From NCBI GenBank assembly GCA_973895155.1, contig OZ316891.1, forward strand, positions 32,251,208 to 32,315,207: a DNA stretch of 64,000 nucleotides, read 5' to 3'. Shown in pieces: positions 1,230-48,843 of the stretch. The stretch comes from Marsupella aquatica (lineage: Eukaryota > Plantae > Marchantiophyta). Position numbers and translations under genes: made by a program. The first letter of the stretch is position 1. Each line of letters begins with the position of its first letter. The notes under the pieces are model-generated. The model saw only the letters and a program-made list of their open reading frames with translations. It did no database searches and was not told where the DNA came from.

Positions 1230-1246
1230 AAAAACCAGTCGCCGTA

Positions 1247-17959: not shown

Positions 17960-17972
17960 TAGCCTTTGTTTT

Positions 17973-22545: not shown

Positions 22546-23395
22546 GGGAGTTGAAGGGTAACACGAACGGGTGGACGAAGGCAACCTTGCTAGGAGAAAC
22601 ATCCACGGCAGCCGAGATGAAGAGGAAAGGAAACAACAACAAAGAGGACACCCCGGCAAAAAGAACGAGGTCGGCGGCACCTAGGAAGCCAGCACCGCAG
22701 CAGAGCGGGACTAGGGGAGAAGCCGAGGAGGAAGAGGTCAATCCCATCAATGCCATTCCAACAGACAATGACACCTGGAAAGGCTGGGTGGCGACCCTAC
22801 CGGAGGAAGTGCAATTACACTTTGCACGAGAGGAGGATGCATGCTTTACAGCCATGCAGACCAAGAACTACCAAGGCTTCATGGCCGGATCCGGCTTGGA
22901 AGCCTTTGTAAGATTACCATGGCTGAAGTCGGAGGTGCCGGACTCAGACTTATTAGAATTTGTGGGATCATGGGAACCCGAGACCAATTCCACGAGGGTG
23001 TATGGGAAGGATTTCTATCTCACTCCCCGGGTGATTGCCGAGGTGTTTGGCTTGCCGATGGGTGATAAGACCAAGGTTGATACCAGGAAGACCTTACTTG
23101 ACAAGGAGTTTTGGTCGTTCCCAGGACCATCAACGAAGAATGGCTTTTTCCGGAACACCTGCACCAACCCACACATCGGAGAGATGATCGATTTCTTGCG
23201 GGTGACCATGCACTGTAACTTGCTGAGGGTAGAGATCAGCAAGGCTCAGGTCTACCTGGCAGAAAGGCCAGACCCAAGCCGGGATTATAACGGGTACCTC
23301 CTCAACCAACTGAAGGAGATCTTGAAGGAGGAATAGAAGGTGATCGGCGTGGGAAGCGTGTCCCGGCTTGGCTATCACATGCCGCTGTTGTGCCG

Positions 23396-26300: not shown

Positions 26301-27233
26301 GTCTGCTGATGTCTTCTTGGCGCTTTTCGGCTACGATCTGCTGGTCTAGGTACCCCGGAATCTTGTCGAACTCCGCTTGAGTAAGCCGCTGGTTGCCCTT
26401 CAGCTTAAAGAACTTAGCTGGAACCTCAAGAATCGCCTCTGCTACCGATCTAAGCCCTTCCTCGCTGAGATATAGTTCGGTGATGTAGTCTCGCAGCTCG
26501 TTATAGCTAGAATCCCTGGTGATGGCTGTCCTTTCGCAATTAACTAGTGCTACCTTGGTTACCAGCTTCGCGTACCTTCGTTCGTAAGCGGCTTTCTCGG
26601 GGCAAGAGTACCAGTAAGTCTCAGAGAACTTAGCACCTACCTCGCCAAACAAGGTCCAAAATCCCAAGGCTGTGAGGGTCATACTAACCTCGTAGTCCAG
26701 TTCGTTGTGTCCACGTTCCCACCTGGCTGGTCCTTTTTCGCGGAGGCCTCGCTCGTCCTGACTAAATCTCGCCACATTTCGCTCTTCTCCCTCGATAATT
26801 TCCTCGTAAAGGTCGACTGGATTCAATCAAAAAGGCGAGCGGATGGCAGCATCCGTGAATTCCAAAAAGGTAAACGTGAGCGAATGGCCCGCAGTGCCAT
26901 CGGCTCCTCTCTTATGGGGGTGCCCGGACGAGCTCGAGCGTGAGAAGGTCAGGCCGTTTGGTCATTGATAACGAGCTGAAGTCGGCGTCTCGGTCCAAGC
27001 GTGATTCTTCTAACTGATTTTTACTCCACTGCCGCCACCGTACCTTGGTCGTGCGTAATAATCCCTTTCCTGAACTCGTAATTATTCGGTTATCTTAACC
27101 TACTCCTAATCTAATCATAATGGCAACTTGACGGCTATACGTGCTATTCTATGCTATGGCTACGGTCCTAATGACCGTATAAGTCCTAATCTACGACCTG
27201 GGTTCGGTCAAGTGACACGTTACCCGTGTCACA
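23396..27233 (-). mobile_element. Solo LTR family D (3838 bp)
   Basis: TGTCG...TCACA termini. TSD TGCCG at 23391-23395 and 27234-27238. Its end matches the LTR preceding PBS+gag at 1247. Confidence 0.93.
24379..26826 (-). pseudogene. LTR-D-encoded ~815-codon ORF (PMD-like core, Pro-rich, coiled coil), two in-frame TAG stops
   Basis: ORFs 25771-26826, 24808-25731 and 24379-24744 share one frame. Core EFISNFD..LSLT..IFGLP.G..DNGY..ERLNFIR..LHMIEPRSEIS aligns with the 882-aa ORF. Confidence 0.85.
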
Positions 27234-29013
27234 TGCCGGTATGCCAGAAGTCAAATCTTTGCCCCAGTACTTCCCCTATTGGCAAGGGCACCGGAGGAGG
27301 TTTCGGAGCAGAGGCCGGCACCAGAGAAGCCCAACCAACCCGACATTCCAACGATCAAGCAGGTGTTTCGGACAAGGAAAGAAGCTGTGCCGATGTAGCA
27401 ACCAGGCATGCAAATTCTGCTGAACTTGCTGGAGAAGGAAAAGAGAACGGTTCCGGCAACGGCAACGGCAACGGCAACAATACAGGACGATGCCCCCGAG
27501 GTCGGCTTAAGCCGACTCAGAGGGGAAGATCCCTTTACCGGAGCCAAGGAGAGAAGGAGGCCAGAACACAAGCCGGGAGTGCGAATGTATGTGGGAGCCT
27601 CAAGCCCCGAATCAGAGGCAGAGCAGCCTAAGGCTCCTTTCCACGGAGAGCAGAAGGAGACGACAGCCTGGAAACCAGAGGAACCAGAGGCCGTTTTCAC
27701 GATTGGACCAGGGGAACAAGGGGAGAAGGCGGGAGTCCAAGTAGTGGAGGAGGCGGGAGAGGACTACAGCAATGATAACTCCGGCTATGGGTTGGATCAT
27801 CATGTTCCAGGAGTAAGGACCTGTGGCCAATTTATCCCCACGCTTCCAAGAGTAGTTTGAGGGGACCCCAACCAGCAGAGTAGCCCCGAGTCTCCCCCAC
27901 GAGAGATTTCTCCCCCAAGCTTTGATGGCATAAAGCAGACGGCACAGGAATTTCAGGAGTGACTTAGGGAGGAAGAGAAAGCAGCCCTGGCTAGGGAGAA
28001 GGATTTACCAGGAGGAGATTGGCCGGAGGACATCAGGCGGCTTGCCAAAAAAAGAAGCAACCCTCTTGCCACCATAGAAGAAATCCGCAAGACGGCTTGG
28101 GAGCAGAGGCCGCGGTGGGTAATGCCGATGACTTCTAGTTACTCCACCTATGCTAAGGATAGAGCCATGGAGTATGGGGAGATGTGTGGGGAACTGGCGC
28201 TCAGCATCTTTGGGGAGGAGTTGGAGCAGGGACCCTTTTTCCAGAGGGAGATGTTGGAAAAGCATCGATTAGAAGAACCGGTGGCTTTGGAGAGGAGCAA
28301 GAAGGACGAGGTCATCCGACGGCTTAGGGAGAAGGAAGCCGAGATGGAAATCCTGCAGGTGGTCAAGAAAGCCCAAGATGAAATACGGATTAAGCGGCAT
28401 GAGCTAAACATCATGCAGGGGCAGTTGGATACCACTCAGTCTGACAATCAGATTATCAAAGATAAACTGACTCTGACCCAAGGAGAGTTGGCCGGCGCAG
28501 TCAAGGAAAGAGAGAAATGGAAGCGGGAGCTAAGGGATGCAGAGGAGGCCCACTTAGCAACCAACAATCGGGCCATGGCGGAGAACCAGAGAAGGGAGAG
28601 GGCGTTGAAAGGAGAGCTCAAAGATATCCGCGGAGCCCTTGAGCAAAAGGAAGTAGAGTTAGGGAAATCCTATCAAGGGATTATTGCGCTGTAGCAGGAG
28701 CTTGCGTCCCTGACGGCCAGCTTCAAGGCTGATCTGCGTGAAAAGGACAACCAGCTCGACCAGACTTATGCCAAGATGAATAAAATGGAGTCTGTGGTCG
28801 TAGTAGAGCTCGACAAGGAGCTAAGAGCAACCCAGGAGGAGAGGGCTACCTTAAGGAGGGAATTGGAGGAAGCCAATAAGGAGCTGGAGGAGGCGTGCAA
28901 GGACCTGGACGAGACCCAAGAGGAGTTGGAGGAAATCACGAGAAAGATGGAGAACCTACAACGGCGGGCCGACAACCAAATGGAGCGGCTGAAGACACAA
29001 GCCGCAGTATTTA

Positions 29014-32000
29014 TGTGGTGCATCCCATGGCTCCCTAAACCCAAGAAACCCCCCAGCTCAAGCCGATTCCCGCAACTTTTGTGCTTGGCGGGGCCGTTTC
29101 CGCGGCTTAGCGGCATGAGACGCTGCTAATCTCCTCTACATCTATTAACAATTTACACACATATACTGGACAGATCCTTCATCGGGTCATGAGATATGAA
29201 GCCGGCCTACTCTAGGCCTTCCCTTGTCTTCCTCTCCTTTTGGTTAGGTGTATTTGGATTCCGCCGCCGGAATGATCCCCAATAGGCTTGGTTAAGCCGC
29301 TAAGACCTCTCTCAGCTCGACACATCCAACTCTCACTCCCTTGCTTACTTTCCTTCTCCTATTAGTTGATGTGGGTACTCTTCACACAAGTTAATGCGAC
29401 ACACAAATAGTAAAATGACTCCTTTTGACTGAGTCATACCATGCACTTGCCATACAAACAGTACATTTCATACACAAGCTCTGCGAACTAAGCCGTGAGG
29501 CCAACTCTATTCAGCTCTTAGGCATGAGGAAACATGAATATACACAAGGTCACTGTATGACTAACCGAGAGCTTCTCTTAGTACTTGATCCTAGCCCAGC
29601 TGGTGCAAACTAAAAACTTGCTAAAGAAGAGGCCCTGAGCTCCCCGCAGCCCAGGTATTTATCCTGGTAGCGGATCCGCCTAATTCTTTGCAGCGTAAGC
29701 CTAATCTACCTAACAGTAATCTACCTGCCCGGATCTACCTATGTACAGCAAGGTAGGGGCACAAGTGTTGCTCCTACCAGTGGAACCGCAATCCCACTAA
29801 GCTAAGTGTCAGGGCCGCTCCTGGTCCTGATCCTAATCTTAAACTTGGAGATCAGCGCCCGCCCTGCCCACTCACGCCTCCTACCTCCACGTCCGCCCTT
29901 CCTAAAAGGAACGGCGCCATTGCACCATCACGACACCGGTGGTGGATCCTCAATGGACGCCCCCAACGCTTCCTCTTCAGCCACTGCCGTTGGCCCGCCT
30001 ACTGACAGATTACCTGCCCTTGACCGAGTCAACTCTCCCTTGGCCTGAGCCACTCCCACGGCTTTGGCCTCCCCTTCTTCTAGGGTAGTTGGATCCTTTG
30101 CCATGACCCTGTCTGGGGTCGGTGCTGGGTCTACCTCCTTGGTCACCACGGCCTGTGGAGTCGTATTACTCCTTGACCCTGAAGGTTTCCGCTTCTTCTT
30201 TGTTTCCGGCTCGGCAGCTGGTCCCTTCCCCTTCCCACTTACTTTCGGCACTGGTGCAGGTGGTGCGGCTTGTTCTTCGGCCAGTACCACTCCTGGTAAC
30301 TGGTTCGCCCCAACGGGCGATGGACCTGCTGCAGCTAAGCATTTAAATACTGCGGCTTGTTTCTTCAGCCGCTCTGTTTGGTTGTCGGCCCGCCGCTGTA
30401 GGTTCTCCATCTTCCTCGTGATTTCCTCCAATTCCTCCTGGGTCTCATCTAGGTCCTTACGTGCCCCCTCCAACTCGTTTTTGGCCTCCTCCTGCTCCCT
30501 GTGGGCTTCCTCCAATTCCTTCTTCAAGGTAGCCCCTCCTGGGTTGCTCTTAGCTCTTTGTCGAGCTCTGTCACGATCTCAGACTCCATTTTATTCATCT
30601 TGGCATAAGTCTGATCGAGCATATCGTCCTTCTCCCTTAGGTCGGCCTTGAAGCTGGCCGTTAGGGACGCAAGCTCCTGCTGCAACGCAATAATCCCTTG
30701 ATAGGATTTCCCTAACTCGGCCTCCTTCTACTCAAGGGCTCCGCGGCTTTTCTCGAGCTCCCCCTTCAACGCCCATTCCTTTCTTTGGGTCTCCGCCATG
30801 ACCCGGTTGTTGACTGCTATATGGGCCTCCTCTGCGTCTCTCAGCTCCTTCTTCCATTTCTCCCTGTCCTTGATTGCGTCGGCCAATTCTCCCTGGGTCT
30901 GAGTCAGTTTATCCTTGATAATCTGACTATCAGCCTGCGCTGTGTCCAGCTGCCCCTGCATGATGTTCAGCTCATGCCGCTTAATCCGCAGTTCATCTTG
31001 GGCTTTCTTGGCCGCCCTTAGATCTTCAATCTCGGCTTCCATCCTCCTAAGCCACCGGATGACCTCGTCCTTCTTGCTTCTCTCTAAAACCACCGCTTCA
31101 TCTAATTGGTGCTTCTCCAACTGCTCCCTATGGAAAAAGGGTCCTACCTCCAACTCCTCCCCAAAGATGCCGAGCGCAAGTTCCCCACACATCTCACCAT
31201 ACTCCATGGCTCTATTCTTAGCGTAGGTGGAGTAAGTAGAAGTGATCGGCATCGCCCATCGCGGCCTCTGCTCCCAAGCCGTCTTGCGGATCTCTTCAAT
31301 CGTGGCTAGAGGTTTGCTTCCTTTTTTGGCTAGCCGCCTGATGTCCTCCGGCCAATCTCCTCCTGGTAAATCCTTTTCCCTAGCCAGGGCTGCCTCCTCT
31401 TCCTGCCTGATTCGCTCCTGAAATTCCTGCGCCGTCTGTTTTATGCCGTCAAAGCTCGGGGAGAAACATCTGGTGGGGGAGACTCAGGGCTACTCTGCTA
31501 GTTGGGGTCCCCTCGTACTACCCTTGGAAGTGTGGGGATAAACCGGACACAGGTCCTTACTCCTGGAACGTGATGGTCCGACCCATAGCCGGAGTTATCA
31601 TGGCTGCAGTCCTCCACTGCCTCCTCTACTTCTTGGACTTCCGGCTTCTCCCTCTCTTCTTCGTCGGTAGGAGCTTCAGGCAATTCTGCCTCAGATTCTG
31701 AGCTTGAGACTCCTACGTACATTCGAACACCCGGCTTGGATTCTGGCCTGATTCTCTCCTTATTTCCGGTAAAGGGGTTTTCCCTTCTAAGTCTGCTTAG
31801 GTTGACCTCTGGGGCAGTGTCCTGCATTGTTGCCGTTGCCGTTGTCGTTGCCGATCTCTTTTCTTTCTCCAGTAGTAGCAGATTCTGCATGCCTGGTTGC
31901 TGCATCGGCAAGTCTTCCTTCCTTGGCCTAAACACCTGCTCAATCGTAGGGCTAACAGGTGGTTGAGGCTTTTCTGCTACCGGCCTCGGTGCTGGAGCTT

Positions 32001-33568
32001 CCTCGGGTGTCCTTACCTGCAGGGGAAGTACTGGGGCAAAGGTCTGACCTCTGGCATACCGGCACAACAGCGGCATGTGATAGCCAAGCCGCGACACGCT
32101 CCCCATGCCGATTACTTGCTGCTCCTCCTTTAAGATCTTCTTCAATTGGTTGAGGAGGTGCCCATTGTAGTCCCGGCTTGGGTCTGGCCTCTCTGCCAGA
32201 TAGACCTGTGCCTTGCCAATCTCTGCCCTCGGCAAGTTACAATGCATGGTCACCCGCAAGAAGTCGATCATCTCTCCTATGTGTGGGTTGGTGCAGGTGT
32301 TCCAGAAGAAGCCATTCTTTGTTGATGGCCCGGGGAACGACCAGAACTCTTTGTCAGGCAAGGTCTTCCTGGTATCAACCTTGGTCTTATTGCCTATCGG
32401 CAAGCCAAACACTTCGGCAATTACCTTGGGAGTAAGATAGAAATCCTTCCCATATATCCTCGTGCAATTGGTCTCGGGTTCCCATGACCCCACAAATTCT
32501 AATAGGTCTGAATCCGGCACCTCCGGCTTCAGCCATGGTAATCTTACAAAGGCCTCTAAGCCGGATCCGGCCATGAAGCCTTGGTACTTCTTGGTCTGCA
32601 TGGCCGTAAAGCATGCATCCTCCTCCCGTGCAAAATGTAGTTGCACCTCCACTGGTAGAGTTGCCGCCCAGCCCTTCCAGGTGTCATCCCTGGTTGGAAT
32701 GGCATTAATGGGATCGACCTCCTCCACTTTGGCTTCTCCCTGCCTCCTGCTCTGCTGCTCGGCTGGCTTCATTGGTGCCGCCGACCTCGTTCTTTTGGCC
32801 GGGGTGGCTTCATCGTTGACGGCTCCCTTCCTCTTCATCTCGGCTGCCGTGGAGGTTTCTCCTAGCACCGTTGCCTGGGTCCACCTTTCCGTGCTACCCT
32901 TCAATTCCCAGTGTATGTCGTTGCAGTTCTTGATGGCCTCTCGAATGCCGATGATTCTGTCTTCGCAAAACAGAAGATCGTCGAGCTGATTGGAAGTAGG
33001 AGTCCACAAGAACTCGGCCTTGATGAGTTTGCCTCCTAAGAAAGCCGTTTTCTACAGCTCCCACAATCGAGCGAGCTCCTGTCATTCTCGAGCTGCCCTT
33101 TCTGATTCTTCGTCCTTGTAAGTCTTGATGTACTTAGTTGCCCATTCGAACAGGCATCCCCAGAAATGTGCCGCTTGATTGACGTTGCTCATACCCTCCT
33201 TAGGTCGATCGTCGGTATCTACTCTCTCCCCGAGTGCTTGCCTAAGCAGCTGACAGTAGTTGGCCTCCCGTAGTCGTCTGCCTAGTTTGTGCTCGCAAAT
33301 GAGCCACCATCTCCTGCAAGCGCTCCTTACCCCTCTCCTCTTCCGGTCCTTCCTCCCGTTGATCCTTCCTAGCCGCCGATGCTTAGCGCGCCCTAACCCT
33401 AATCGAGTTTTCACCCCCAACGTCCTTACCTCCGGCCTCGGCCCGGGTTCCATAGTCGCCCCTAATTGTTTATATTTTCCTTGTTTTGTCCCTATACTAA
33501 GGTGTTTCCAGGGTGCATTCCTGCTTTACCTACTTAACTGGCCGAGTGATTCCTGGCTAGGCATCACA
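29014..33568 (-). mobile_element. Solo LTR family E copy 2 (4555 bp)
   Basis: TG..CA termini identical in type to copy 1. TSD ATTTA at 29009-29013 and 33569-33573. Confidence 0.93.
29928..33453 (-). pseudogene. LTR-E-encoded ~1100-aa ORF (PMD-like core + long coiled coil), stops and frameshifts
   Basis: Pieces 33082-33453, 31498-33009, 30728-31252 and 29928-30527. Core LEAFVRLPW..LLEFVGSWE..LTPKVIAEVFGLP.G..NGF homologous to B and D ORFs. Confidence 0.85.
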
Positions 33569-35578
33569 ATTTAAATGCTTGGCTTCATCAGGTCCAACTC
33601 CAATTTGGGGAACCCAGTTACCAGGGGTAGTATTGGCCACTGGACAAGCCAAAACACTCACCCCGGTGCCAAAGGTAGGTAGCAAGGGGAAGGAACTGGC
33701 TATCAAAATAGGGAAGAAGAAGAAGCAAAAACCTTCTAGGTCTGGGAGTTATACGGCTTCTCAAGCCGAGGTGACCGAGAGGATAAACCCGACACCAATC
33801 TCCGGCATCAGCACGGCGGTGGATCCACCAGTCCTAGGAAGTGGAGATGGACCGGATCCTCCGCTAGAACATGCCGGGGAGGCCTGAGCCGTATCGGAGG
33901 CCTGAGCCGTATCGGAGGCCAGGACCGATGATGAAGCCAAAGCCGGGGGTGGACCCAGTCAGGCCGATGAAGAGTTGACTCGGTCAAGGGCAGGTAATCT
34001 ATCAGTGGACGGACCAACGGTAGTGGCTGCGGAGGAAACGTTGGGGGCATCCATTGAGAACCAGCCACCGGTGTCATGACGGTGTAAGGGCGCCGTCCCT
34101 TTTAGGGAAGGCGGACGTGGAGGTAGGAGGCGTGAGTGGGCAGGGCGGGCACTGATCTCCAAGTTTAGATTTAGGATCAGGACCAAGAGTCGGCTCTGAC
34201 ACTTAGATTAGTGGGATTTTGGATCCACGGGTGAGGGCGACACTTGTGCTCCGGCCTTGCTGTACATAGGTAGATTATAGTTAGGTAGATTACAGTAGAT
34301 AGATTAGGCTTACGCTGCAAGGAATCAGGCGGATCCACAACCAGGATAAGTACCTGGGCTGCAGGGAGTTCAGGGCCTCTTCTTTCGCAAGTTTTTAGTT
34401 GCACCAGCAGGGCTGGGATCAAGTAGTAAGAGAAGCTCTCGGTTAGTTATACAGTGACCTTGTGTATATTCATGTTTTCTCATACCTAAGAACTGAATAG
34501 AGTTGGCCTCACGGCTTAGTTCGCAGAGCTTGTGTATGAGATGTACTATTTGTATTGCAAGTGCATGGTATAACTCAGTCAGAAGGAGTCATTTTGCTAT
34601 TTGTGTGTCGCATTAACTTGTGTGAAGAGTGCCCACATCAACAAGAAGAAGAGAAGTAAGCAAGGGAGTGAGAGTTGGATGTGTCAAGCTGAGAGAGGTC
34701 TTAGCGGCTTAACCAAACCAATTGGGGATCATTCCGGCGGCGGAATCCAAATATACCTAACCAACAGGAGGGAAAGACAAGAGAAGGCATAGATTGGGCC
34801 AACTGCGTATCTCATGACCCGATGAAGGATCTGTCCAGTATATGTGTGTAAAATATTAATAGTAGTAGTAGGAGGTTAGCAGCATCCCATGCCGCTAAGC
34901 CGCGGAAACGGCCTCGCCAAGCACAAAACCTGCGGGAATCGGCTTGGGCGGGGGGAGGGTTTCTTGGGTTTGGGGAGCCATGGGACGCACCACACACAAG
35001 CGATGCAGTCGTCCAAATGATTGTTGTGGACTGGCAAGATGACAACACCGAGTGGGTAAATTTGGTGGACGTGGCGGAGCACCCTAATCCATCTGACGAG
35101 GCTGAGTGCTACCAAGTGTCAACAAGAGCCAAGCGGAAGGAAGAGAAACAGGAAGAGAAACGCAGGAAAAAGCAAGATACTACTCCGGTGTAGCCAGCAA
35201 TAGATATACCCCCGAAGAAGGACAATGACTACCGTCAAGACGACCCAAAGCTATTTTACCCCCACACCGAAGAATTGGTAAAGAAACAGTTGGAGGCCTA
35301 CGAAGCTCAAGAATACCAGAAGGCAATCAATAAAGACATCAAAGTAGCCGAGGCTGCCCGGTGATAGGAGCAAGAAAAGCAAGAGGAGGAAGCCAAATAG
35401 CAGCCGAAGGAAGAAAAGGAGGACTATGATATTAAGGCAGACGTGAAAAGTTGCCCGGTTACAGCAACGGTAGGGGCAACTGCTGCAGAACAATCCACAG
35501 TACCGACGGCAACTGAGGGAGTTGCTTACCGGTCGGCGACGGAGGTGACTACCCCGAGTTGGGATCGCGGACTGCAAC

Positions 35579-35998
35579 ATGATATGCGAGGACCTAGGAG
35601 CGCTGGACATCTTGATTGAGATCAATAATTGTACCATCAAGATGGTTCTCGTAGACGGAGGAGCGGGAGTCAACATCATGATTGAGGAAACATCAGTCAA
35701 GTTAGGATACCTCACGTATCAACCCACAGCCCAAGCTATCAGATTAGCAAACGGGGCAAGGGTCCTTCCATTGGGCATGCTCACGCGGGTGCTCACTCTT
35801 GTAGGAGGGGTGGAGTTCTATCTCAACTTCCTAGTCATGAGGCCGGTTCGGCCCTCCTCTTATCCGGTCCTTGTGGGCAGGCCATGGTTGTATGGTGGCC
35901 GTGTGATCATGGATTGGGGAAAGAAGGAGCTACGATTTGGGACACCCACAGTACGAGTATCATGGGCAATGGATGATTATCAGGGTGAAACCCCATAG
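35579..35998 (+). pseudogene. Retrotransposon aspartic protease
   Basis: VLVDGGAGVNIM active-site motif and YPVLVGRPWL. Confidence 0.88.
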
Positions 35999-36549
35999 GG
36001 ACCCGAGGAATATGATTCGGAGACCTTGGAGGAAGAGGAGCTCAATATGATTGAACTCATTTTGTCCCTGTGCGAGGAAGATGTCTTTGGAGTAGAGGCA
36101 ACCCGGGAAACGCATCTCCTGAATTACCCGAAGGTTGCTATTGAGTCCACCCCGAGCACCTCTACCGCCCGGGCCGATGAAACACAAAAACGGCCCATCA
36201 ATACGGAGGACACGGCTCCAGCTAAGTAGGGAGCCGATGCTGATTCTACCAGTGCAGGACCTAGTGACCACGAACCGGCCGAACAATTGCCCGGACCCGA
36301 GACTGAGACTTAAGAAACGAGTCTCATGGGACCTGTCCATCCTGCAATTGGAGGAAGTAACTCCAAATCCGAAACCGATCCTGGTTCCACCCATGTACGG
36401 AGGAGTTTGGTTAGCTAAGCTAGATGCAAGCCTGGACCTGAGCTTGCGGAACCAGGTGGAAGTCATAAGGAAGGAGCACTATCGGAAGTACACCATTGGG
36501 ATGGATAAGTCTTTTAACCTGGGGGCCCATGCGGTACGTAGGGACAACG

Positions 36550-36921
36550 AGGTGTTTACAAAAGACAGCAAACAGGAAACAGGATTTAATAACATAAACT
36601 GGTAACAGGTTAAAAATCTGGTAACAGGAAAATGGGTGGAATTTTCTTTTGATTTTTTTTGAAATTTTTTTTTTTGAGAAAAAAAAAGTTTTTTTTTCCG
36701 GTCGACCACTTTTTTTTGCTAGCGCCCGGTGCTGCTAATAGTAGCGCCCAAAGCTAGCCAAAAATATTGCATTGTTAATTTTTTTTGGAAATAACATGTT
36801 TTAGGAGACATTTTTAAATTGTCATTTTTCCTGGTAATAGTGATTTTTTCCTGGCAATAGCATTTTTAAAACAGGAAAAAAAAATCCTGTTTTCCTGTTT
36901 CCTGTCTCCATCGCTATACCC
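36550..36921. mobile_element. 372-bp MITE-like insertion in pol
   Basis: Flanked by direct repeat GGGACAACG (36541-36549, 36922-36930). AT-rich. Imperfect terminal IR containing AGACAG(C/G)AAACAGGAAA(A)CAGGATTT. The 9-bp TSD suggests a Mutator-type element. Confidence 0.7.
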
Positions 36922-36934
36922 GGGACAACGTTGC

Positions 36935-38362
36935 ATGAACCCAAGGTACTCCATCTTAGTGAAGGAGGAAATTGACCGTCTCCTCGCCGCAGATTTCATC
37001 TACTCGGTAATGGCTAGCGACTGGGTTTCGCCCAATGTCATGTTACCAAAGAAGGGAGGTACGGAAAGAAAACCTAAGATTTGGATCTATCAAGACTATC
37101 ATAAGTTGAACGACGCAACCCGGAAAGACCATTACCCGTTACCATTCACGAATATGGTTCTAGATATGGTAGCCCGAAACAAAATTTATACATTCCTTGA
37201 CGGGTATTCGGGTTATAATCAAATTTGGATCCGCCTCTTGGATCAGCTCAAAACAATGTTCACTACGGAATGGGGGACATTCGCATTTCGGAGAATGCCG
37301 TTCGGGCTGTGTAACGCCCCGGCCATGTTTCAGCGACTCATGATGAATATCTTCCACGATTTCCTACGGGAATTTCTGGAAATATTTATCGACAACTTTG
37401 CCTTCTTTGGAACCATCGCCATGCACCCCGAACATCTACGACGTACGCTACAACAATGCCGAGAGGTTAACCTCAAGCTTTATCCCGCCAAATATTTTTT
37501 TGGGGTAGAGGAGGGAGTGTTACTTGGGCATCGTGTGTCCAAACGGGGTATCGAGGTGGACCAAGAGAAGGTCGCGGCTTGGATGGCGGTGGTGTTTCCC
37601 GTAGATCAAAAAGCGGTACGATCCTTCTTGGGCTGTGTAGGGTACTATCGTCAGTTCATTAAAGATTTTGCTAAAATTGCATTGCCCTTAACTGAGATGA
37701 TGAAGAAGGACGCGGTAATCAAGGAGACACCCAGGAGACGGATTGCTTTCGAAGAACTCCGTAAACGACTCACCACCGCACCTATCATGGTCACCCCGGA
37801 CTGGAATAAGGAGTTCCATGTGTATGTCGATGTGTCAGGGTTCTGTATCGGGTCCGTACTCAGTCAGCTTGATGAAGATGGACGTGACCACCCCATCTAC
37901 TTTGCTAGCCGTCAACTATTCACAGCCAAAAAAAATTATTCTCCCATTGATCGAGAAGCTCTAGGAATAATCTACTCATGTAAGAAGTTCCGACACTATC
38001 TGCTTGGCTACAAGGTCATATTCCACACGGATCATGATAGCCTGAAGTATATGGTCAACAAAGTGAACGTGACGGGACAGATAGCCCGGTGGGTGCTACT
38101 TCTCCAGGAATTTAACTACAAAGTTTGGGTTTGGCCAGGAAAGGCACATCTCAACGCCAACTTCTTTTCAAGGCTGGACGGCATACCAGTCAATCAACCA
38201 ATTAATGATACTTTTCCGGATGAGGAGTTATTCCACATAGGGGCGGGAACGCCTACGTGGTACGGTTCAATAATCACCTTCCTCTTAACAGGCCGCATCC
38301 CCGACGACATCAATCAGGAGGCCGCCACTGTGTTTTTATGGAAGGCCAGGCCATACTTATGA
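36935..38362 (+). pseudogene. pol: Reverse transcriptase + RNase H
   Basis: WVSP..PKK, DY.KLNDATRKDHYPLP, FLDGYSGYNQI, MPFGLCNAPA.FQR. YxDD is degenerate (FIDN). RNase H motifs VYVDVS..G.VLSQ, REALGIIY, TDHDSLKY. Confidence 0.95.
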
Positions 38363-39510
38363 TACAGGGTCACCTACATAAAGAAGGAGTTAATGGGAAG
38401 CTACGACGCTGCTTAGAGTACAAGGAGACGCTCATTGTTATGCGGGCCTTGCATGAAGAAGAAGCTGGAGGTCATTTTGCGTCTCTCACGACAGCCCGAA
38501 AGATTCTGGATTTGGGGTATTGGTGGCCTACGTTGCATCGAGATGTACAACGCTTTATCAAGGGATGTGATTTGTGCCAACGGGCTGGTGCCCCAAGGAG
38601 AACCCATAACCACCCCCTCACTTCTGTGCTCCCGCTAGCACCATTCGAGAAGTGGGGTATTGATTATATCGGGCCGTTCACTCCCGTTACCCGAAGACGA
38701 AGATGCAGGTACATCCTGCTAGCTATAGATTACTCCACCAAATGGGTCGAAGCACGGGCTACGGTAAAGGACAACGCTACAACCAGTGCCAGGTTCTTAT
38801 ACGAGCAGATCTTCACGCAGTTCGGGCTGCCCTTGGAATTAGTAAGCGACCCGTGGAACACATTTCCTCAATGACACCGTAGCCCAGCTTACGGAGCGTT
38901 ACCTAGTCAAGCACCGCAAGACTACCCCGTATCATCCTAAAGCCAATGGGCTGACAGAGAGAGCCAATGGGATCATTGGGAAGATCCTCAACAAGACAGT
39001 AGCCGTGCACAAAACGGATTGGGATGACAAGTTGTACGTAGCGGTGTACTCATATAATCTGGCTTACAAGACTACTACGAGTCACAGCCCATACTTTCTC
39101 GTGTTTGGCCAACATTTGTTGGTGCCCGTTGAGTTTGAAGTCCACACTCCACGGGTAAGCATTCGGGATCGCTTACCCGAAGCTGAAAGTTTGTCAGACA
39201 GAGCTTACCAGATTGAAGCATTAGAAGAAGCACGGCTACTGGCAGCTTGACATGTCGTAAAGCAGCAGGTAGCTTCCAAGAAGCAGCACAACAAAGGACT
39301 ACGGAAGGTCGACGTCATGACAGGCGATCTAGTCTTGCTGTACGACAGTAGGTACATGCAGTTTCTGGGGAAGCTTCATACCCATTGGTTAGGGCCTTTC
39401 CTAGTCAATCAGATCTATCCTAACGGATCTTTGGAACTTGCAACGTACGCCGGCGATTTACTACCCACGCGAGTTAGTTATGATCGTGTGAAGAAGTACC
39501 ACTATCAAGA
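38257..39510 (+). pseudogene. Integrase (frameshifted)
   Basis: HHCC (LHEEEAGGHF..GYWWP..CDLCQR), WGIDYIGP, IDYSTKWVEA, LVSD, TTPYHPKANGLTERAN, and GPF motif (KLHTHWLGPF). Confidence 0.92.
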
Positions 39511-39552
39511 CGACGACGTCGAGAGTGATGTTTGCGAGGATGCTTCACAATT

Positions 39553-39562
39553 AAACAGGGAG
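39553..39562 (+). promoter_or_regulatory. Polypurine tract
   Basis: AAACAGGGAG, 3 nt before the TG of the 3' LTR. Confidence 0.6.
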
Positions 39563-39565
39563 CTA

Positions 39566-40442
39566 TGTGATGCCGCCGATACGACGGGTAATGAGTGATC
39601 CGGTCTAACCGCGCTTAGCATGCGCGTTAGGGGTATCTTAGGCCGTTATTATTAGCATAACAACAGTATTTAGGTAGCCATTATGAGTAGGAAATCATTA
39701 GTCAATAAGGGGAATTCATGTTCGGGCTGGCGGTGGGTCTCCATTCGCACGCCCGGGTTGTGAGCGTGTAATGGGCCCCCTTTCCCCCCTCAGGTCCGTA
39801 TAACAAACCCCGAGAGGCGGCCACTGACACGAGTTGACCCGGACCGGCGAAGGGGCCGGTACACTGCGAGCATGAAAGGCTTGGCCTATAAGCGACAAGG
39901 AGGCGTCGGGCGATCGACGAGCTCTCAGGGTATAAAAGGTGGCCGATCCTTTGCAGTGCACCAATTCTTCAGTTCACGCGCTAGCTTTGACCCCGTCTCT
40001 CTCTCGCTTTTCCTTAGTCACCTGTTATCTCCTCTGAATGTCGCACACAATCCTTTCCAGTTTGGCCATACGATTTTGGACTCAGTTCCTGTCTATCAGA
40101 GGGCACTTGGCTGACTCATTGAAACACGCCAACTTGCGCCGATACGAGATTGAACGCGAATACAAGAGAGCCATCCGCCTAGCAGGACAACACCACTATC
40201 TCCTTAACTTTGATTATCCATCCCAAAGCGAGCTTTACCGACCCAAAGAAGTATCAGGGTACTTCTTTGACAAAGGAAAATACATCGGCTTCTAGGAGGC
40301 ATTGCTTTGGCTCCCGGATGAGGTCTTCAATATCCCGGGCACGATCAACTTGCAGCGGCACCACTTCGGCCACATCCCCGCTCGGGTCCGGGTTATCATC
40401 AACAGCGAGTTCAGCACTACCCGGTCGACAGGGCCGTCTGCA
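39566..40442 (+). mobile_element. Truncated 3' LTR of family B including start of LTR ORF (ATG 40038)
   Basis: TGTGATGCCGCCG matches the start of the solo LTR at 47156 (minus strand). MSHTILSS ORF start is conserved. Confidence 0.9.
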
Positions 40443-42482: not shown

Positions 42483-43144
42483 CACCATTTTCCTTCTCCT
42501 TACCAGTAGTGTAATAGGTCTTCTGGGCTATCCTAGTTAGTCTATCCTTTGACATGAAAGGATTGTAGCACAATTGACTCACAAGAGTGGACTTGTAGAT
42601 AGTCCTTCCCTCATAAGTTACACTAGACACTACTGACCGGGGTGTCTGCACATCAGTTAAGTCTGCTTGAACTCCAGCCAAGACATGCCTTACTTCATGT
42701 CCTAGTGTCTCCATCTCACAAAATGGGTTAGTGTCCACCTCAATCAAACAATCATCAACTGTTAGTGGCTCAATACAATCCTGACTGTCCAGAGTGTCCC
42801 ATGAATCAATCCAATTGAGATCTTCTTCAGGATCTTCAAACTCTAGAAAATCTCCAATTGGGGGCTCAGGTCTAGGGCCTATAGTAGATTGATGCTCAAC
42901 TGTGTCTTCAGCATCATCACATAACACAGCCTCTTTCATGACACTTGTATCCGGCCAAGTCTCTGCCTCCACCTCCCAAGGATGAACCCACCATCATCTT
43001 TTTGCTGTTGGCAAAGAACTCCTTGGTGACATGTTCAGCTTGCACAACAAATCCTTTGCTTCCTACAAACCTTCCTTTAGAGCATCAACAACCAGCTCAT
43101 TAGTTTGAATTGCAGAGTAATCAAATAAATTTGGAGCTTGTTCT

Positions 43145-46100
43145 TGTCACGTCGTAGGCTTCGGCCTTAACTCAGACTTCAGCTTAGACGGGCACATCCC
43201 TCGTAAATCTGAGGGTTCGGGCAGGAAGGGAAGCACGTAATGCACCTTATTCTCGTAAACTAGCGCTAAGTGCGCATACTGCTAAATACGAACACCTCCT
43301 AGGTATGGTTTGTGTTCCGCCGCCAGAACGTACCTTAGTCGATAGCAGGATCGACCCCGGCTTAAGGGCTTCTAAGCCTTCGTGCTGTCCGCCTTCGATC
43401 CGGATTCGATGATACAGGTCCTCAACCCGTGCTCGCAACCACTTACCCGCAGGCTGCACCCTGTGCACGTCTCGGGTAGTGCGTTCGGCCTGGCGCTACC
43501 ACCCATATACGAGAAACCCACACACATATGCGCACACATGCATACAATCTCGATTTACATGAAGGAAAATGATGGGAAAGGATTTTACTACAAAGGGAAC
43601 ATATGCATACACTTAGTTGACACGACAGCCCTGGAATGCACAGGTTCAAGGCCGAGGGTGCACACTACAACGGAGCCCGGCTCTGCACTCGCCCGGCGAG
43701 CTTAGTCCTACCCCCTCCCCTTGGTACTCTGTCATTCCCAGAGGTCGGGACTCCCCGCATGTCCCGCGGATGTCCGACTCTGAAACTAAAAACCCCCCCT
43801 GCCTCTACCGAGGGGTGCACTAAATACTAAGAGCCGAGGAACGGGGTGTCCTCACGCTGAAGATTCGCTGACTAAGGTCCTAACTAAGCTGACAGTCAGG
43901 CCGGAAAACGGCTGTGTCTTATTAGAAGATCCTAATTTACGCAGGCTGGATAGCAGGGCAGCGCTGCTGTACCTAAGGCAGGTGCCTGTCCCAAGAGCCT
44001 GACTAAGCCAATCCTAATCCTAATCTATTCCTACTCCGCCGCTAATGCCTGGCACGCTTGCCAGAGCTGCCCAAATGGGAACGGCCATCCCGCTGCCTTC
44101 GAAGCCTGTCATTGTCCGCTTTGAGGAGCTGGACCTGGTCCAGCAGAGATTCGTTCTCTCGCCTCGCCGCGTCCGTCTCCTCTGCTGCCTCCTGACATGC
44201 CTCCTCCAGCTGCTGGGCGTCGCTCATCAGTTTACCCGCCAGCTGGTCCTGCTTCTCGGCCTCGGTTTGGAGCCGCGCCATCTCGACCTGCAGCGTGGCT
44301 ATCTCCGTCGCATCCCGTTGGGCTCGCTCCTCGGCCTCCTCCAGGTCTTTCTGCCAGGTGACAGCTTGTTTCTTCAAACTGTCAATCTGGTTCCGGAGTC
44401 GTGTAATCTCGGCCTCGTTCCCAGCTTTGGCCTGTTCGGCTAGGGCGGTAAGAGCGTACGCCTTTGCTAACAACTCATCGGCGGCTGCAACCTTGGGTCG
44501 TAGTTGCAGAAGCTCAGCCTCTTGAGCCGCCACTTCGTTCTTTAGGTACACGGACTCCACCCGGTACCGCTCTATCCTCTGAAGGGCCTCCGACTGGGCC
44601 CGACCTGCCTTTACGGCGGCAACCAACTCCTGATTGAAGAAACAGGCTACCTTCCGGGCCATGAACTCCCCGGTATCCCGGGCAATTTGGTGAGAGAAAT
44701 CTCCCAGAAGCCCGTTCAGAAATGTACCCTGTACGAAGAGTTCCGGGTGGTCCAAGTTGTGCCTGTCCGGATTTGGGCACGGGCAGACATCAACACGCGC
44801 AGGGGCCGGGGCAGTGACGTCCAGCCCTGGGGACATAACGTTGGAAGGGGCTGGAGTGTCCTCCTGCAGCGATGTCCGGTTCTCCGGAATTGCCACCGGC
44901 GGGTCCTTGGGAGACCCGGGTTCGGGTAAGACCTCTGCCGTACCAACTTCTGTACTTAGCCCGGCTAGTTGGGTTGCATCAACGGTTGCGACGACCGACC
45001 CCTCCGGCGCCTCCTCGGTTACGATTACAGCTATTTGTGGAGGTGGGGTGGGTGAAGCTGGCGTGTCCACTGGACTTCGGGCCTCGGGTTGGGGCCGTCT
45101 CTCCAATGCCGGAAAAACCCACCTAGCTGGGACCAGCTTTGTAACGTTGATGCGGGGAAGGGTTCGTCGATCAAACCGGGCGTACCACTCAAGAATGATT
45201 TCGATGTGGCTAGCGAAATACGCCTTCCCGCCAATGTACAGCGTCTTCCTTCGCCGCTCCATCTCTTCATGGAATTTCTTAGCGAAGTACGACGCCCATT
45301 TCCTAGGTCGATAGTTCTTGACCTGGATAACCTGGGCGGCGGAGATCTCCCCCCGGGGTTCCATCATGTGGAGAGCGTACCTCTGGAACTCTAGCCGCTC
45401 AGCTATCTCGGGCATGAGGCAGGTCCTCATCACGAACCCGTTGTCTACTGATCCCTCTGAGGGAAAACTTGAAGATTGGTACTTGGCCCCCTTGCCCCCG
45501 GGAGCCCGTGATTCGACTCGATGGTCACCTTCGGGTAACCCGAAGATCATCTTGAGCCGTTCTTCTGTGAGGGACATATTCCTTCCCCGCAGCCGAGTCT
45601 GTTGACGTACGTCGTCATAATTCTTGACGAATTCTGTCATGTCCTCCCCGTAGTACCTGCAAGTGTTCCAGGGGAGAGAGGCGAGGTGCTCAAATCCCTG
45701 AGTCTTCAGGTACACCGCATGCTTGGGATGGAGGATGTTGCTGTGAACGTTTTCCCCCATGCGATGCATCGTCACCTTGGCTACGGCTACCGTGGCCAAC
45801 GGTAACCCGGATGCAGTGGCGGATTCCTTCCTCTTCTTTCCCCGTGACTGACTCGGGGAAGGTGATACTTCCCCATCCTCCTGATCGGGCCTGGGGAGTG
45901 CCACTGCGGTTGGTAACGGGCCCGGGGCGGCCACGGTCACCATGTTGTCTGCTAGGGCCGCTCCTGGGGTCAGAGCAGGGGGTGGGGACGATATAGTGTC
46001 GGCCCCCCGAGCGCTTGTTCCTCTGGGCCGCCTGGTCAAGGGTGGGGTAGCCTCGTCGTCATCGCTAAGATCCACAGCGTTGATGACGGAGCATACCTGT

Positions 46101-47156
46101 GCTGGCTGGGTGATAGGTGGTGGGGTTTGGCTAGGCTGCGGCTGAGGCTGAGGCTGAGGCTGAGGCTGAAGCTGAGGTTGCATGGGCACGGGTACGGGTA
46201 CGGGCCCGGCTGAGTTGGTCATGTTGGTTGATGGCCGAGTTCCCATGAAGCTCTGCAGGTGCTGGTAGAAGTTCTCCGAAGCGAGTGCGGACGCCCTTGT
46301 CGAACGGTTGGTACTGGACTCGCCGTTAATGACAGCCCGAACCTGGGCAGGGATGTGGTCGAAGTGATGTCGCTGCAGGTCGATTGTACCCGGGATATTG
46401 AAGACCTCGTCCGGAAGCCGAAGCAATGCTTCCCAGAACCCGATATATTTGTCTCCGTTGAAGAAGTACCTAGATACCTCAGCTGGTCGGTAAAGCTCGC
46501 TCTGAGATGGGTAGTCAAAGTTAAGGACGTAGTGGTGTCGTCCTGCTAGGCGGATGGCTCTCTCGTATTCGCGTTCGATCTCGTATCGGCGCGGGTTGGC
46601 GTGTTTCAATGAATCGGCCAAGTGCCTTCCGGTAGATAGGAACTGCGTCCAGAATCGAATGGCCGAGCTGGAGAGGATCGTGTGCGACATTCAGAGGAGA
46701 TAGTAGTGGCGACCTAGAGAGAACGAGAGAGCTGGGGTCGAAGCTGGCGCGCGGACTGATGGACTGGTGCACTACAAAGGGTTGGCTCTCCTTTTATACT
46801 TTGAGGGCTTGTCGATCCCCGACGTCTCCTCGACGCCCATAGGTTGAACCGCTCACGCTTGTGGTGTACCGGCCACTCCGCCGGTCTGAGTCAGCGTGCG
46901 TCAGTGGCCGCTTCCTTAAGTTCGTTATACGGACCCGAGGGAGGGGCCCCTCCACGCTCGTAACCCGGGTGTGCGAATAGCGACCCGCCGCCAGCCCGAA
47001 CCTGAAGTCCCCCTTATTGCCTAATGATGTCCTACCCCTAATGATTACCTAAATACTGTCGTTATGCTAATAATAGCGGCCTAAGACCTACCTAACGCGC
47101 GTGCCGAGCGCAGTTAGACTGAATCACTCATTAACCGCCGTACCGGCGGCGTCACA
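43145..47156 (-). mobile_element. Solo LTR family B (4012 bp)
   Basis: TG..CA termini. TSD GTTCT at 43140-43144 and 47157-47161. Start matches the post-PPT sequence (39566) and end matches the pre-PBS sequence (17959). Confidence 0.95.
44042..46690 (-). CDS. Intact 882-aa LTR-encoded protein (N-terminal helical region, PQ tract, PMD/plant-transposon-like core, Pro-rich linker, coiled coil, basic C-terminus)
   Basis: Uninterrupted ATG-to-TAG ORF in LTR sense orientation. Homologues in four other LTR copies. Confidence 0.88.
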   Translation of the reverse strand: MSHTILSSSAIRFWTQFLSTGRHLADSLKHANPRRYEIEREYERAIRLAGRHHYVLNFDYPSQSELYRPAEVSRYFFNGDKYIGFWEALLRLPDEVFNIPGTIDLQRHHFDHIPAQVRAVINGESSTNRSTRASALASENFYQHLQSFMGTRPSTNMTNSAGPVPVPVPMQPQLQPQPQPQPQPQPSQTPPPITQPAQVCSVINAVDLSDDDEATPPLTRRPRGTSARGADTISSPPPALTPGAALADNMVTVAAPGPLPTAVALPRPDQEDGEVSPSPSQSRGKKRKESATASGLPLATVAVAKVTMHRMGENVHSNILHPKHAVYLKTQGFEHLASLPWNTCRYYGEDMTEFVKNYDDVRQQTRLRGRNMSLTEERLKMIFGLPEGDHRVESRAPGGKGAKYQSSSFPSEGSVDNGFVMRTCLMPEIAERLEFQRYALHMMEPRGEISAAQVIQVKNYRPRKWASYFAKKFHEEMERRRKTLYIGGKAYFASHIEIILEWYARFDRRTLPRINVTKLVPARWVFPALERRPQPEARSPVDTPASPTPPPQIAVIVTEEAPEGSVVATVDATQLAGLSTEVGTAEVLPEPGSPKDPPVAIPENRTSLQEDTPAPSNVMSPGLDVTAPAPARVDVCPCPNPDRHNLDHPELFVQGTFLNGLLGDFSHQIARDTGEFMARKVACFFNQELVAAVKAGRAQSEALQRIERYRVESVYLKNEVAAQEAELLQLRPKVAAADELLAKAYALTALAEQAKAGNEAEITRLRNQIDSLKKQAVTWQKDLEEAEERAQRDATEIATLQVEMARLQTEAEKQDQLAGKLMSDAQQLEEACQEAAEETDAARRENESLLDQVQLLKADNDRLRRQRDGRSHLGSSGKRARH

Positions 47157-48843
47157 GTTCTCCTTCATCTAGAGGATGTAAAGTTGCCCAAACATGATCT
47201 TGTTTATCATGGGATTGACGTATCTTCAATCCCTCTAGTCCATACTCTAATCCAGCTAGTCGATTCAGTCCCACTGCACTGTCTAGTAGAGATCCAAAGT
47301 CATAATTTCTCTCATGGCCACTCATGCCACCTACCTTGCTGAAAAATATCTCACAACAATCTGATCCCAACAAGTGAAATGGAACTTGCAAATATGGGAA
47401 CTTGTCCCGAAAGGCACATGTCACACCATTCTGAGTAGTGTAGTAGTATATCGTGCTATTAGAGTATGTATGTTTGGTATGAGTGCTATTGGAGCCGATA
47501 AGGTTCCGTCAGGTTTGTGTGAGAGGGTACTTCTCACTTGTGAAGCATTGAAAGGTCATCTTTCAATGTTGAGCCTTGGAGAGAGAGGAGCTTGAGTGTG
47601 GCTATGGTGGCTGTGAGCTCCGCTTGTGTAACATGGATTCCTTGAGTAGTGCAAGGTGCGTTGGCTTGACATACGTGTGTGATCGGATCGATGCGGGATT
47701 GATGGGGTATTGTTGACCGGGATCGTTGTGCCGATTGTATTGAGATTACATTGAAAGATCAGATGCAAACTCTGTTGTGCGGACTGTGCAAACAGAAGTT
47801 CATTTTGGATTGATCGAGCTGGTGATGGTTTGTGGAAATCGTTTCAATCTGTTGCGTGGATCCGTGGTATCTCGGATCTCATTGAGTAGATCGTTAGTCC
47901 TTCAATCTGCTGCAGTTTGTGTTGGCGAATGCTATTTTGAGGAAAGAGATCACAGATCATTGAAGATTGCAGATCGCTCATTGTGTCATCGGATCTGGGC
48001 ACATAACGCTGCTGTTGTAGCCGAGTTTGAATGTTGGTTTTCGTGGAGGAAAGCATTCCGCGAATGTTGGCAGATCGTCGGACAGTGGAAGTCATCTGCG
48101 AGGCTTCAGATCTGATTTTCGACTACTGTGATAAGGCACAAGTGAAGCGGCGATCTGCCGATGCTCCGCGCGGTTATGTGGAAGGGCCAATCCGCGCGAA
48201 GTTGCTGCAACTCGCGGATCCGAGCGACAGGGCGCCGACTGCTCGCAGCTGATCCGCAACTCCCGACTGTCCGTCGTTCTGTGAAGGGAAACTGAGAGAC
48301 GGAAATCTGAATGTTGCCGAAACTCGATTCGGTGTAGCGAAGCGTTGCGGGCGTGAAGGGCTCACTCTTTGGCTCATCTCGGCGTTTGAGGCTTCGAGGC
48401 AACTCGTGGCTATTCTGGGCCGTGAGCGCGAGGGGAGGCACGAGGTCGAGCGCGAGGAGGTCACCCATCCCGGGGCTATTCCCAGCCGCAAGCGCTTAAC
48501 TGGCAAGTTCTCATCCCACCTTGTGTACACACAAGCTTTGACAACTTGTTGTTTAGATTCAAGCGCCAGGGGGCTTTATACACTTCCCGGTTTGTTTAGA
48601 GGCCTATTCTAGGCCAAATCAAAGGTTGTTTCAGGGTTTTTGATACTTCTGAGTCCATCTAGACTCACATATTGAACCAATTTTGCCTTGGTTCTCATCT
48701 ACAACATTGGAGTGCCATTGTGAAGCCTATTATGAAGGCTCTTCCTTGAACCTTATGCACATTGTCATATTGATTTGCATTTGCTTTTGTGTGGAGAGTT
48801 GAATGATCAGCCTATTCATTAAAAGTGTATTATTATTTGATTT

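Follow-up and report, generated by a model that had tools for sequence, protein, structure and literature searches.

An intact accessory gene inside the long terminal repeat of a Ty3/gypsy retrotransposon of the liverwort Marsupella aquatica

Long terminal repeats (LTRs) of retrotransposons are usually treated as non-coding control regions, and the formation of solo LTRs as a step that disarms the element. Ogre, Tat and Athila elements typically possess extra open reading frames (ORFs) that encode PMD, Transposase_28 or Athila ORF-1 domains, and coding sequence inside an LTR is familiar from retroviruses, where sag of mouse mammary tumour virus (MMTV) lies in U3 and nef of human immunodeficiency virus (HIV) overlaps U3, viral RNAs expressing both genes from their 3′ end. 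Both annotation pipelines and surveys that catalogue the extra ORFs of plants search between the LTRs only. A 2020 review places the additional plant ORFs ‘in the internal region’ in its available passages (PMC7264820), as do those of PMC6317226, PMC4408406 and PMC3485330, while a 2019 review speaks, in the part available, of ‘long noncoding terminal repeats’ (PMC6431247). Here, we describe a stretch of 64,000 nucleotides from the liverwort Marsupella aquatica (hereafter the window; GenBank assembly GCA_973895155.1, contig OZ316891.1, positions 32,251,208 to 32,315,207 of the forward strand), in which a unit termed L is very likely the solo LTR of a Ty3/gypsy element with a complete accessory gene for a protein of 882 amino acids (aa), a structural reading that is well supported. 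This gene is the extra ORF of a plant Ty3/gypsy element moved into the LTR, such extra ORFs themselves being already known.

In the accessible parts of the sources, Tat lineage IV elements carry a sense ‘PMD-CC’ ORF at their 5′ end (PMC4408406, PMC6317226), and the rice elements Retrosat2, RIRE3 and RIRE8 have LTRs of more than 3 kb together with an ORF0 situated ahead of gag-pol (PMC3485330). L resembles Tat and Ogre elements (i.e., Tat lineage IV ‘PMD-CC’ and Ogre ORF1) in its sense ORF just upstream of gag, its globular domain of predicted PMD type with a coiled coil C-terminal to it, its very long LTR and its non-chromovirus Ty3/gypsy affiliation. However, their ORF is described in those same passages as internal, behind the primer-binding site, whereas the ORF of L lies inside a duplication-bounded LTR and is followed by a putative primer-binding block. 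A further difference is that no archaeal-type RNase H (aRH) was found in the related element E described below, and that Pfam PMD gives no match. With the ORF0 elements of rice, L shares LTRs longer than 3 kb, a fast-evolving extra ORF upstream of gag-pol and LTRs ending in ...GTGACA, but the passages available describe ORF0 apart from the 3.2-kb LTR (PMC3485330); moreover, these are grass elements, and a sequence relation to L was not detected. A literature search for ORFs inside plant LTRs returned retroviral cases only, survey supplements (which could list 5′ extra ORFs actually situated in LTRs) lying outside its scope. Within that scope, the statement of a first-pass annotation of this DNA that extra ORFs are normally internal and LTR ORFs mainly retroviral holds.

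L, its flanking duplication and its ORF are located as follows.

43145..47156, minus strand: solo LTR L, 4,012 bp, TG..CA, with LTR base 1 at 47156
43140..43144, no strand: left copy of the target-site duplication, GTTCT, at the border and the empty-site joint
47157..47161, no strand: right copy of the target-site duplication, GTTCT, at the border and the empty-site joint
44042..46690, minus strand: intact ORF (P0001), 882 aa, LTR bases 467-3115, stop codon included

The duplication bordering L is perfect over 5 bp (...GTTCT/TGTCACG... at 43145 and ...GCGTCACA/GTTCT... at 47156/47157), and the sense-strand termini TGTGAC...GTGACA are those of an LTR, i.e., TG..CA with short inverted ends. Contigs from four public runs (X1, X2, X5 and X6) were placed on 42800-47500 in a search for the empty site, and a joint from 43139 to 47157 that omits 4,017 bases (4,012 + 5) was found in six contigs from three of the four runs (one from run X1, three from run X2, two from run X5 and none from run X6). 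Since these contigs run across both flanks without L, copies of the host repeat without L exist and L is a discrete insertion. The L family is highly abundant, and 2,085 of the 8,237 contigs placed from run X1 are at least 99% alike, indicating that this L copy is young. Within L no terminal direct repeats were found, the only repeats being three short families of 21-25 nt, none of them at the ends. This excludes an internally deleted element with short terminal repeats of its own, which the first-pass annotation had named as the scenario that would overturn its reading.

The relation of L to a retrotransposon can be read from element E, whose parts are scattered over the window, and from a second element, E2.

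39566..40442, plus strand: 3′ LTR fragment of E, LTR bases 1-871, ORF aa 1-168 with one stop
39550..39565, plus strand: purine-rich stretch ATTAAACAGGGAGCTA, a weak polypurine tract between the integrase end and LTR base 1
4854..5749, plus strand: first piece of the 5′ LTR of E, ORF aa 212-515
16005..17959, plus strand: second piece of the 5′ LTR of E, ORF aa ~527-882 plus the 3′ non-coding part
17969..17996, plus strand: conserved block TTTTTGGCGCTAGATGGAGGGGGCACTC, putative primer-binding site, 10 nt past the LTR end and overlapping the gag ATG
17982..19663, plus strand: gag of E, with a weak Retrotrans_gag match, zf-CCHC and frameshifts
35549..39565, plus strand: protease (weak match), reverse transcriptase (RT), RNase H and integrase of E
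1247..2391, minus strand: N-type 5′ LTR of E2, last 1,145 bases, adjoining the E2 primer-binding block and gag
159..1246, minus strand: gag of E2, directly after the N-type LTR end and the primer-binding block

When L was compared with the window by blastn, three non-self matches were obtained, every one of them inverted, so that the sense strand of L is the minus strand and the 882-aa ORF lies in sense. Unit bases 3142-4012 correspond to 40442-39566 (80.7%), a match that begins right after the integrase ORFs; unit bases 45-1710, equalling LTR bases 2303-3968, correspond to 17931-16267 (78.7%), with the LTR end at 17959, before gag; and unit bases 2003-2805 correspond to 5745-4932 (74.2%). By tblastn, aa 1-168 of the L ORF were placed at 40038-40481, aa 212-515 at 4842-5746 and aa 514-882 at 15970-17076, meaning that in E the integrase is followed by the front of the ORF and gag is preceded by the remainder. 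These LTR pieces share one orientation and do not overlap (bases 1-871 at the 3′ end and ~1100-4012 at the 5′ end). The 3′ fragment is truncated at 40442 and fused to unrelated DNA, and the two 5′ pieces are split by the nested insertion at 5750-16004.

The domains of E stand in Ty3/gypsy order, with zf-CCHC at 19121-19663, a weak gag-asp_proteas match at 35549-35995, RVT_1 plus RT_RNaseH at 36818-38359, and Integrase_H2C2 and rve at 38224-38871; the ORFs with the RT, RNase H and integrase domains span 36818-39250, after which comes LTR base 1. Past the LTR end at 17959, E continues with TAGCCTTTGTTTTTGGCGCTAGATGG... and then with gag and its zinc knuckles. The conserved TGGCGCTAGATGG block right behind this 5′ LTR end is the putative primer-binding block; its 28 nt start 10 nt past the LTR end, with a TGG 13 nt past it. 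E2 has the same 28-nt block (as the reverse complement of ~1207-1234) and the same gag start as E, though the flanks differ. Two families thus show the same succession of LTR end, conserved block and gag, once each, and the end of a solo LTR of the second family (N, see below) coincides with the boundary in E2. At breakpoint 2391/2392 the N-type LTR of E2 (minus strand) is fused to the interior of an M-type LTR (plus strand), and this breakpoint is the deletion which removed the front of the E 5′ LTR.

L belongs to a high-copy Ty3/gypsy family. In a search for aRH, plus-strand ORFs of at least 45 aa from 34996-39600 of the degenerate element E gave no RNase_H or RVT_3 match at E <= 1, and no Chromo match was present at the C-terminus of the integrase (38846-39595). 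As liverwort Tat-like elements have been reported to occur without aRH (PMC13468544, in its available part), this absence of aRH and chromodomain makes a basal Tat/Athila-type lineage plausible for E.

The nest of insertions in which L is found was resolved by self-comparison of the window plus inspection of all junctions. The region is a series of successive insertions, each flanked by a 5-bp duplication.

23396..27233, minus strand: solo LTR N, 3,838 bp, duplication TGCCG
29014..33568, minus strand: solo LTR M′, 4,555 bp, duplication ATTTA
19718..34995, plus strand: LTR unit M(+), duplication CACAA, inserted in E between gag and protease
20707-22545: insertion X, duplication GGGAG, inside M(+)
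40590-42482: insertion X2, duplication CACCA
5750-16004: insertion X3, duplication ATTCC/GTTCC, splitting the 5′ LTR of E
6892-15242: unit of 8,351 bp nested in X3, duplication GTTAA

N, M′ and M(+) are TG..CA units of 3.8-5 kb, each with a 5-bp duplication and a sense ORF. M′ and N share the build of L, i.e., TGTG...ACA ends, a leader of ~400-500 bases, a sense ORF of ~800-1,000 codons and a trailer of ~900 bases. In N, one frame (26826->24382) with two in-frame stops encodes the same central domain and coiled coil as in L, while the homologous ORF of M′ is split across three frames and that of M(+) is broken by the three insertions nested in this unit (X, N and M′). An LTR-borne accessory gene is common to at least three LTR families in this genome. 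Beside these insertions, the LTR interior of M(+) has a tandem duplication of ~327 bp (87% identical) at 20091-20707, and an M-type copy displays the empty site of the M′ insertion at 3409-3414.

These boundaries bear on the alternative that L is not an LTR at all, but an internally deleted or chimeric element whose ORF is an internal 5′ extra ORF of the Ogre ORF1 type, situated behind a short LTR. The sense orientation of the ORF directly upstream of gag would suit such an element, since the same arrangement is described in the accessible parts of the literature on Ogre, Retrosat2 and RIRE3/8 (PMC4408406, PMC3485330), and the window is without a complete element having two full LTRs. However, L lacks terminal direct repeats, the first 168 codons of the ORF also stand behind the integrase at the 3′ end of E, four units from three families show the same kind of boundary with a 5-bp duplication each, and the end of solo N is the LTR/gag boundary of E2. 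We regard this alternative as largely refuted and highly improbable. L behaves as an LTR in its termini, its duplication with an empty site elsewhere and its lack of inner terminal repeats, and the identification of the duplication-bounded TG..CA unit as an LTR in the first-pass annotation is supported by the duplication, the empty site, the position of base 1 after the integrase at 39566 and that of the LTR end at 17959, before gag.

The ORF runs from 46690 to 44042 on the minus strand without an internal stop and takes up 2,649 of the 4,012 bases of L (66%), in agreement with the earlier description of two-thirds of the unit as one sense ORF; the longest ORF in 500 shuffles of L was 308 aa, against the 882 aa observed. 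Codon alignments of the L ORF with the LTR copies of E gave dN/dS values of 0.037 (272 codons; a rough value, as dS is saturated at 4.4 in this segment), 0.071 (27 codons), 0.205 (356 codons) and 0.169 (147 codons), the E copies of these four segments holding 1, 0, 4 and 1 stops, respectively. The comparison of dN/dS among copies, proposed at the outset, has thus come out at 0.04-0.20 between L and E. The central domain of the protein is common to N (blastp E value 6e-32, 44% identity) and M′ (E value 1.5e-19, 28% identity), with 27 invariant columns among five copies in the window, and the N-terminal region is collinear between L and N as well. Among the 40 of 463 variant rows listed, 9 of 14 variant sites in the ORF are synonymous versus an expected share of 34% (transitions), which in this biased subset is weak evidence (binomial P 0.019). 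The intact sense ORF has thus been conserved in three LTR families and shows purifying selection when its copies are compared.

Alternatively, L might be an LTR whose ORF is a role-less passenger, i.e., captured host sequence that is open only through its youth. Its near-identical contigs in run X1 do mark this copy as young, the ORFs of the other three duplication-flanked units are broken, and word-based protein searches found no match. The dN/dS of 0.04-0.20 between diverged copies, the conservation of domain and layout across three LTR families (27-44% identity) and 86 library proteins, and the conserved promoter and ATG context all argue against a passenger, which we consider improbable.

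Upstream of the ATG, a promoter element was identified.

46790..46799, minus strand: TATA box GTATAAAAGG, LTR bases ~358-367, ~100 nt upstream of the ATG

It contains the sole TATAAA of L (LTR base 359, position 46798) and is followed by a CT-rich leader. In the second copy of this region (39566-40090), neither the TATA box nor the ATG context differs, against ~79% identity of the surroundings, and in N a degraded form of the box occupies the corresponding position. The conservation of a TATA box upstream of the ATG suggests that the LTR promoter drives the ORF, which would leave a U3 of ~390 bases and place the ORF in R/U5 rather than in U3. The ORF also likely lies in the transcribed R/U5 because the putative primer-binding site is situated downstream of it. 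Further on, T-rich AGTAAA/TGTAAA blocks located ahead of the LTR end, by ~400-450 bases, are common to L and N, and it may be speculated that these form the poly(A) region, making each LTR a complete transcription unit. Self-priming was considered and rejected, as by eye the leader behind the TATA box resembles, rather than complements, the region past the LTR end.

The position of the ORF might also be explained the other way round, with L being an LTR that holds the ORF in U3. The last ~900 bases would then contain the start of the genomic RNA. Like MMTV sag, the ORF would be a gene of its own or a 3′-terminal one, having arisen through a shift of the polypurine tract to a place upstream of what had been a 3′ extra ORF. 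U3 is generally the largest part of an LTR. The 897 bases past the stop codon would suffice for a promoter, R and U5; families L and N have conserved blocks in common within their last 450 bases; and the extra ORFs met most often in plants are sense ORFs located between pol and the 3′ LTR, according to the available part of PMC7264820. Against this, the last 900 bases of L contain neither TATAAA nor TATATA, and an AATAAA near the end of N, tried as a shared poly(A) or TATA signal, was rejected since it is not conserved in L. Moreover, both L copies have conserved the one TATA box ~100 nt upstream of the ATG and its CT-rich leader. An ORF in U3 therefore appears rather unlikely. Like sag and nef, the gene of L is coding sequence inside a long terminal repeat, but with its promoter upstream of the ORF, suggesting R/U5, and without homology to either; the analogy with these retroviral genes, drawn in the first-pass annotation, is probably not the best one.

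The encoded protein has two recognizable regions.

45101..45724, minus strand: conserved central domain, aa 323-530, common to the N and M families and 86 library proteins
44087..44605, minus strand: C-terminal coiled-coil region, aa ~696-868, with sub-threshold SMC/GAS coiled-coil matches only

A profile built from the domain copies in the window was searched against 1.84 billion representative proteins, and yielded 86 relatives at E <= 1e-3, 37 at E <= 1e-10 and 2 at E <= 1e-30. Ten clusters of relatives were examined, comprising three from Calypogeia fissa and one from Riccia sorocarpa (both liverworts), one named ‘hypothetical protein’ and five unnamed; in the five relatives examined in full, the domain is likewise followed by a linker and a coiled coil. 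Word-based searches gave no match for the whole protein, for residues 300-560 or for the domain alignment versus longer proteins, and neither of two metagenome scans gave a relative of the protein. For the domain, searches of Pfam (E <= 10), NCBIfam and PDB sequences with two profiles returned coiled-coil noise only, and Pfam PMD (PF10536) and Transposase_28 (PF04195) did not match it at E <= 10. Transposase_28, PMD, ATHILA ORF-1 and Transposase_32 had come up as language-model look-alikes with scores of 0.78-0.80, and were set aside as leads only. Transposase_32 (PF20167, ‘putative plant transposon protein’) is matched at E <= 0.01 by 8 of the 58 aligned relatives, below the curated cut-off (best E value 1.6e-7, 31.8 bits versus a cut-off of 45), and has no matches to the 882-aa protein of the window. 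Three relatives (P0057, P0060 and P0085, one of them from Riccia sorocarpa) show weak matches to DDE_Tnp_4, a Harbinger-type transposase, so the central domain may also travel with DNA transposons.

The central domain was modelled with AlphaFold2 on the alignment of relatives (predicted local distance difference test, pLDDT, 92.1; predicted template modelling score, pTM, 0.88); an earlier model from four sequences, with a pLDDT of 36, was discarded. In a structural alignment against 48,161 chains, VANC21 alone reached Z >= 5 (Z 7.2, root-mean-square deviation, rmsd, 4.0, over 184 of 208 residues), the next chain having a Z of 2.9; a repeat comparison with VANC21 gave the same Z of 7.2 with 186 residues aligned, the rmsd ranging from 3.9 to 4.0. 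Foldseek returned nothing from PDB at E <= 1e-3, and its top row was VANC21 bound to DNA (E value 0.41, probability 0.54, versus at most 0.03 for later rows). This model predicts that the central domain has the VANC/PMD fold. In the available parts of the respective papers, VANC proteins are described as sequence-specific anti-silencing factors of VANDAL transposons (PMC5735166, PMC10398659), and as structurally homologous to the PMD protein MAIN and self-associating via a coiled coil, a predicted helix (PMC13547354). VANC21 is the sole clear structural match of the domain and, like the protein of L, a transposon-encoded accessory protein, and the coiled-coil helix predicted for VANC self-association (same source, in part) has its counterpart in the coiled coil of L. 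Yet VANC21 comes from a dicot DNA transposon, the identity is 10-12%, and DNA binding and anti-silencing would be attributed to the L protein by analogy only. By that analogy, we predict an accessory factor with a VANC/PMD fold and a coiled coil that would act on the DNA of its own family.

Taking structure, promoter and fold together, the best explanation is probably that L is a solo LTR with a TATA-driven ORF, likely in R/U5, for a VANC/PMD-fold, coiled-coil factor that would act on the DNA of its family. The predicted start of transcription lies ~30 nt past this box, around LTR base 390-400, and a genomic RNA from there would open with the ORF as its first cistron, in the manner of Ogre ORF1 or Retrosat2 ORF0. 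Because the primer-binding block comes after the ORF and not before it, the ORF would lie inside the repeat and be copied during minus-strand strong-stop synthesis, and new insertions would carry it in both LTRs. Recombination between LTRs would then delete gag-pol and keep the promoter plus the ORF. The protein would oligomerise through its coiled coil and, in analogy to VANC21, might bind non-coding DNA of the family and counteract silencing.

Several observations weigh against this explanation. No element in the window has a complete ORF in both LTRs, as the E pieces do not overlap and the 3′ LTR is cut at 40442. The putative primer-binding site begins 13 nt past the LTR end; a tRNA match for this block was not found, and the window holds no tRNA gene (nor, in a search for Rfam families, any such family). 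The polypurine tract before LTR base 1 is weak. Among the contigs listed, one bridges the junction of integrase and LTR with at least 31 letters on each side, and it is identical to this locus and may hence be this very locus. An intact ORF is present in one of the four duplication-flanked, ORF-bearing units, solo copies being subject to decay, and the lowest dN/dS value comes from the segment with saturated dS. With regard to the protein, Pfam finds no family in the 882 aa, the link to Transposase_32 is sub-threshold and indirect, the PDB sequence searches did not find a sequence-level link to VANC21, the Foldseek E value for VANC21 is 0.41, and a Z of 7.2 lies in the middling range.

A gene inside the LTR would be doubled with each transposition and spared by LTR-LTR recombination, in line with the first-pass annotation, in which the gene is doubled in each element and survives solo-LTR formation. 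The ORF does lie inside the LTR, but doubling of the whole gene was deduced rather than seen, given the non-overlapping E pieces. Likewise, survival applies to L, and to this unit alone among the four (N having two stops, M′ three frames and M(+) three insertions); the broken ORFs of these three fit neutral decay after insertion. That solo LTRs leave behind a working trans-acting gene is possible for young copies, while the decayed ORFs of older ones argue against it. A more far-reaching proposal, that every LTR of the family is a self-contained gene (promoter, ORF and terminator) for a silencing-lifting VANC/PMD-fold protein with recognition of the family’s own DNA, and that young solo LTRs form a dispersed reservoir of this trans-acting factor keeping the family active after the purging of most full-length copies, seems distinctly unlikely.

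With the gene in the LTR, gene dosage would amount to two accessory-gene copies per element, with one left after deletion, and solo LTRs may still express the protein. An LTR-borne ORF also implies a strong-stop DNA of ~3.6 kb. Through the predicted fold, an extra ORF from a bryophyte retrotransposon is tied to VANC21, the one transposon anti-silencing factor whose structure has been solved, and thence to PMD proteins, and the role of the extra ORFs of Ogre, Tat and Athila, a long-standing question, becomes directly testable via this match.

Other insertions of the nest were recorded as well. Family X is represented by three copies of a 1.84-kb solo LTR (20707-22545, 40590-42482 and 5750-16004), each with its own 5-bp duplication; identity is 92.8% between two of them and ~79% for the third, which is inverted. 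The unit at 6892-15242 has TG..CA, L-like ends; it begins with 2,053 bases that resemble an ORF-less LTR, the final 247 of these bases being repeated at the end of the unit. Its interior holds an F-box ORF (8989-9594) and a fragment of ribosomal protein L18A (14126-14407, minus strand), and it may be a relative of L and N without the ORF that carries captured host sequence.

L itself sits inside another high-copy repeat, which resembles a CACTA (En/Spm) DNA transposon and covers 40443-40589, 42483-43144 and 47157 to ~56100. This repeat has an ORF of 1,272 aa (49367-53185, minus strand) with a DUF7869 match (E value 1.6e-43) and a weak TNP1/EN/SPM match, and tandem arrays of 66 bp (53.3-54.4 kb) and 34 bp (55.5-56.1 kb). 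Next to it, a row of long ORFs on the plus strand (57990-63905), either host genes or cargo of the neighbouring transposon, includes a weak N6_N4 DNA-methylase match (59114-60361), an NIF/CTD-type phosphatase (60444-61634, E value 2.4e-14) and a faint Med13_C match (62256-63902).

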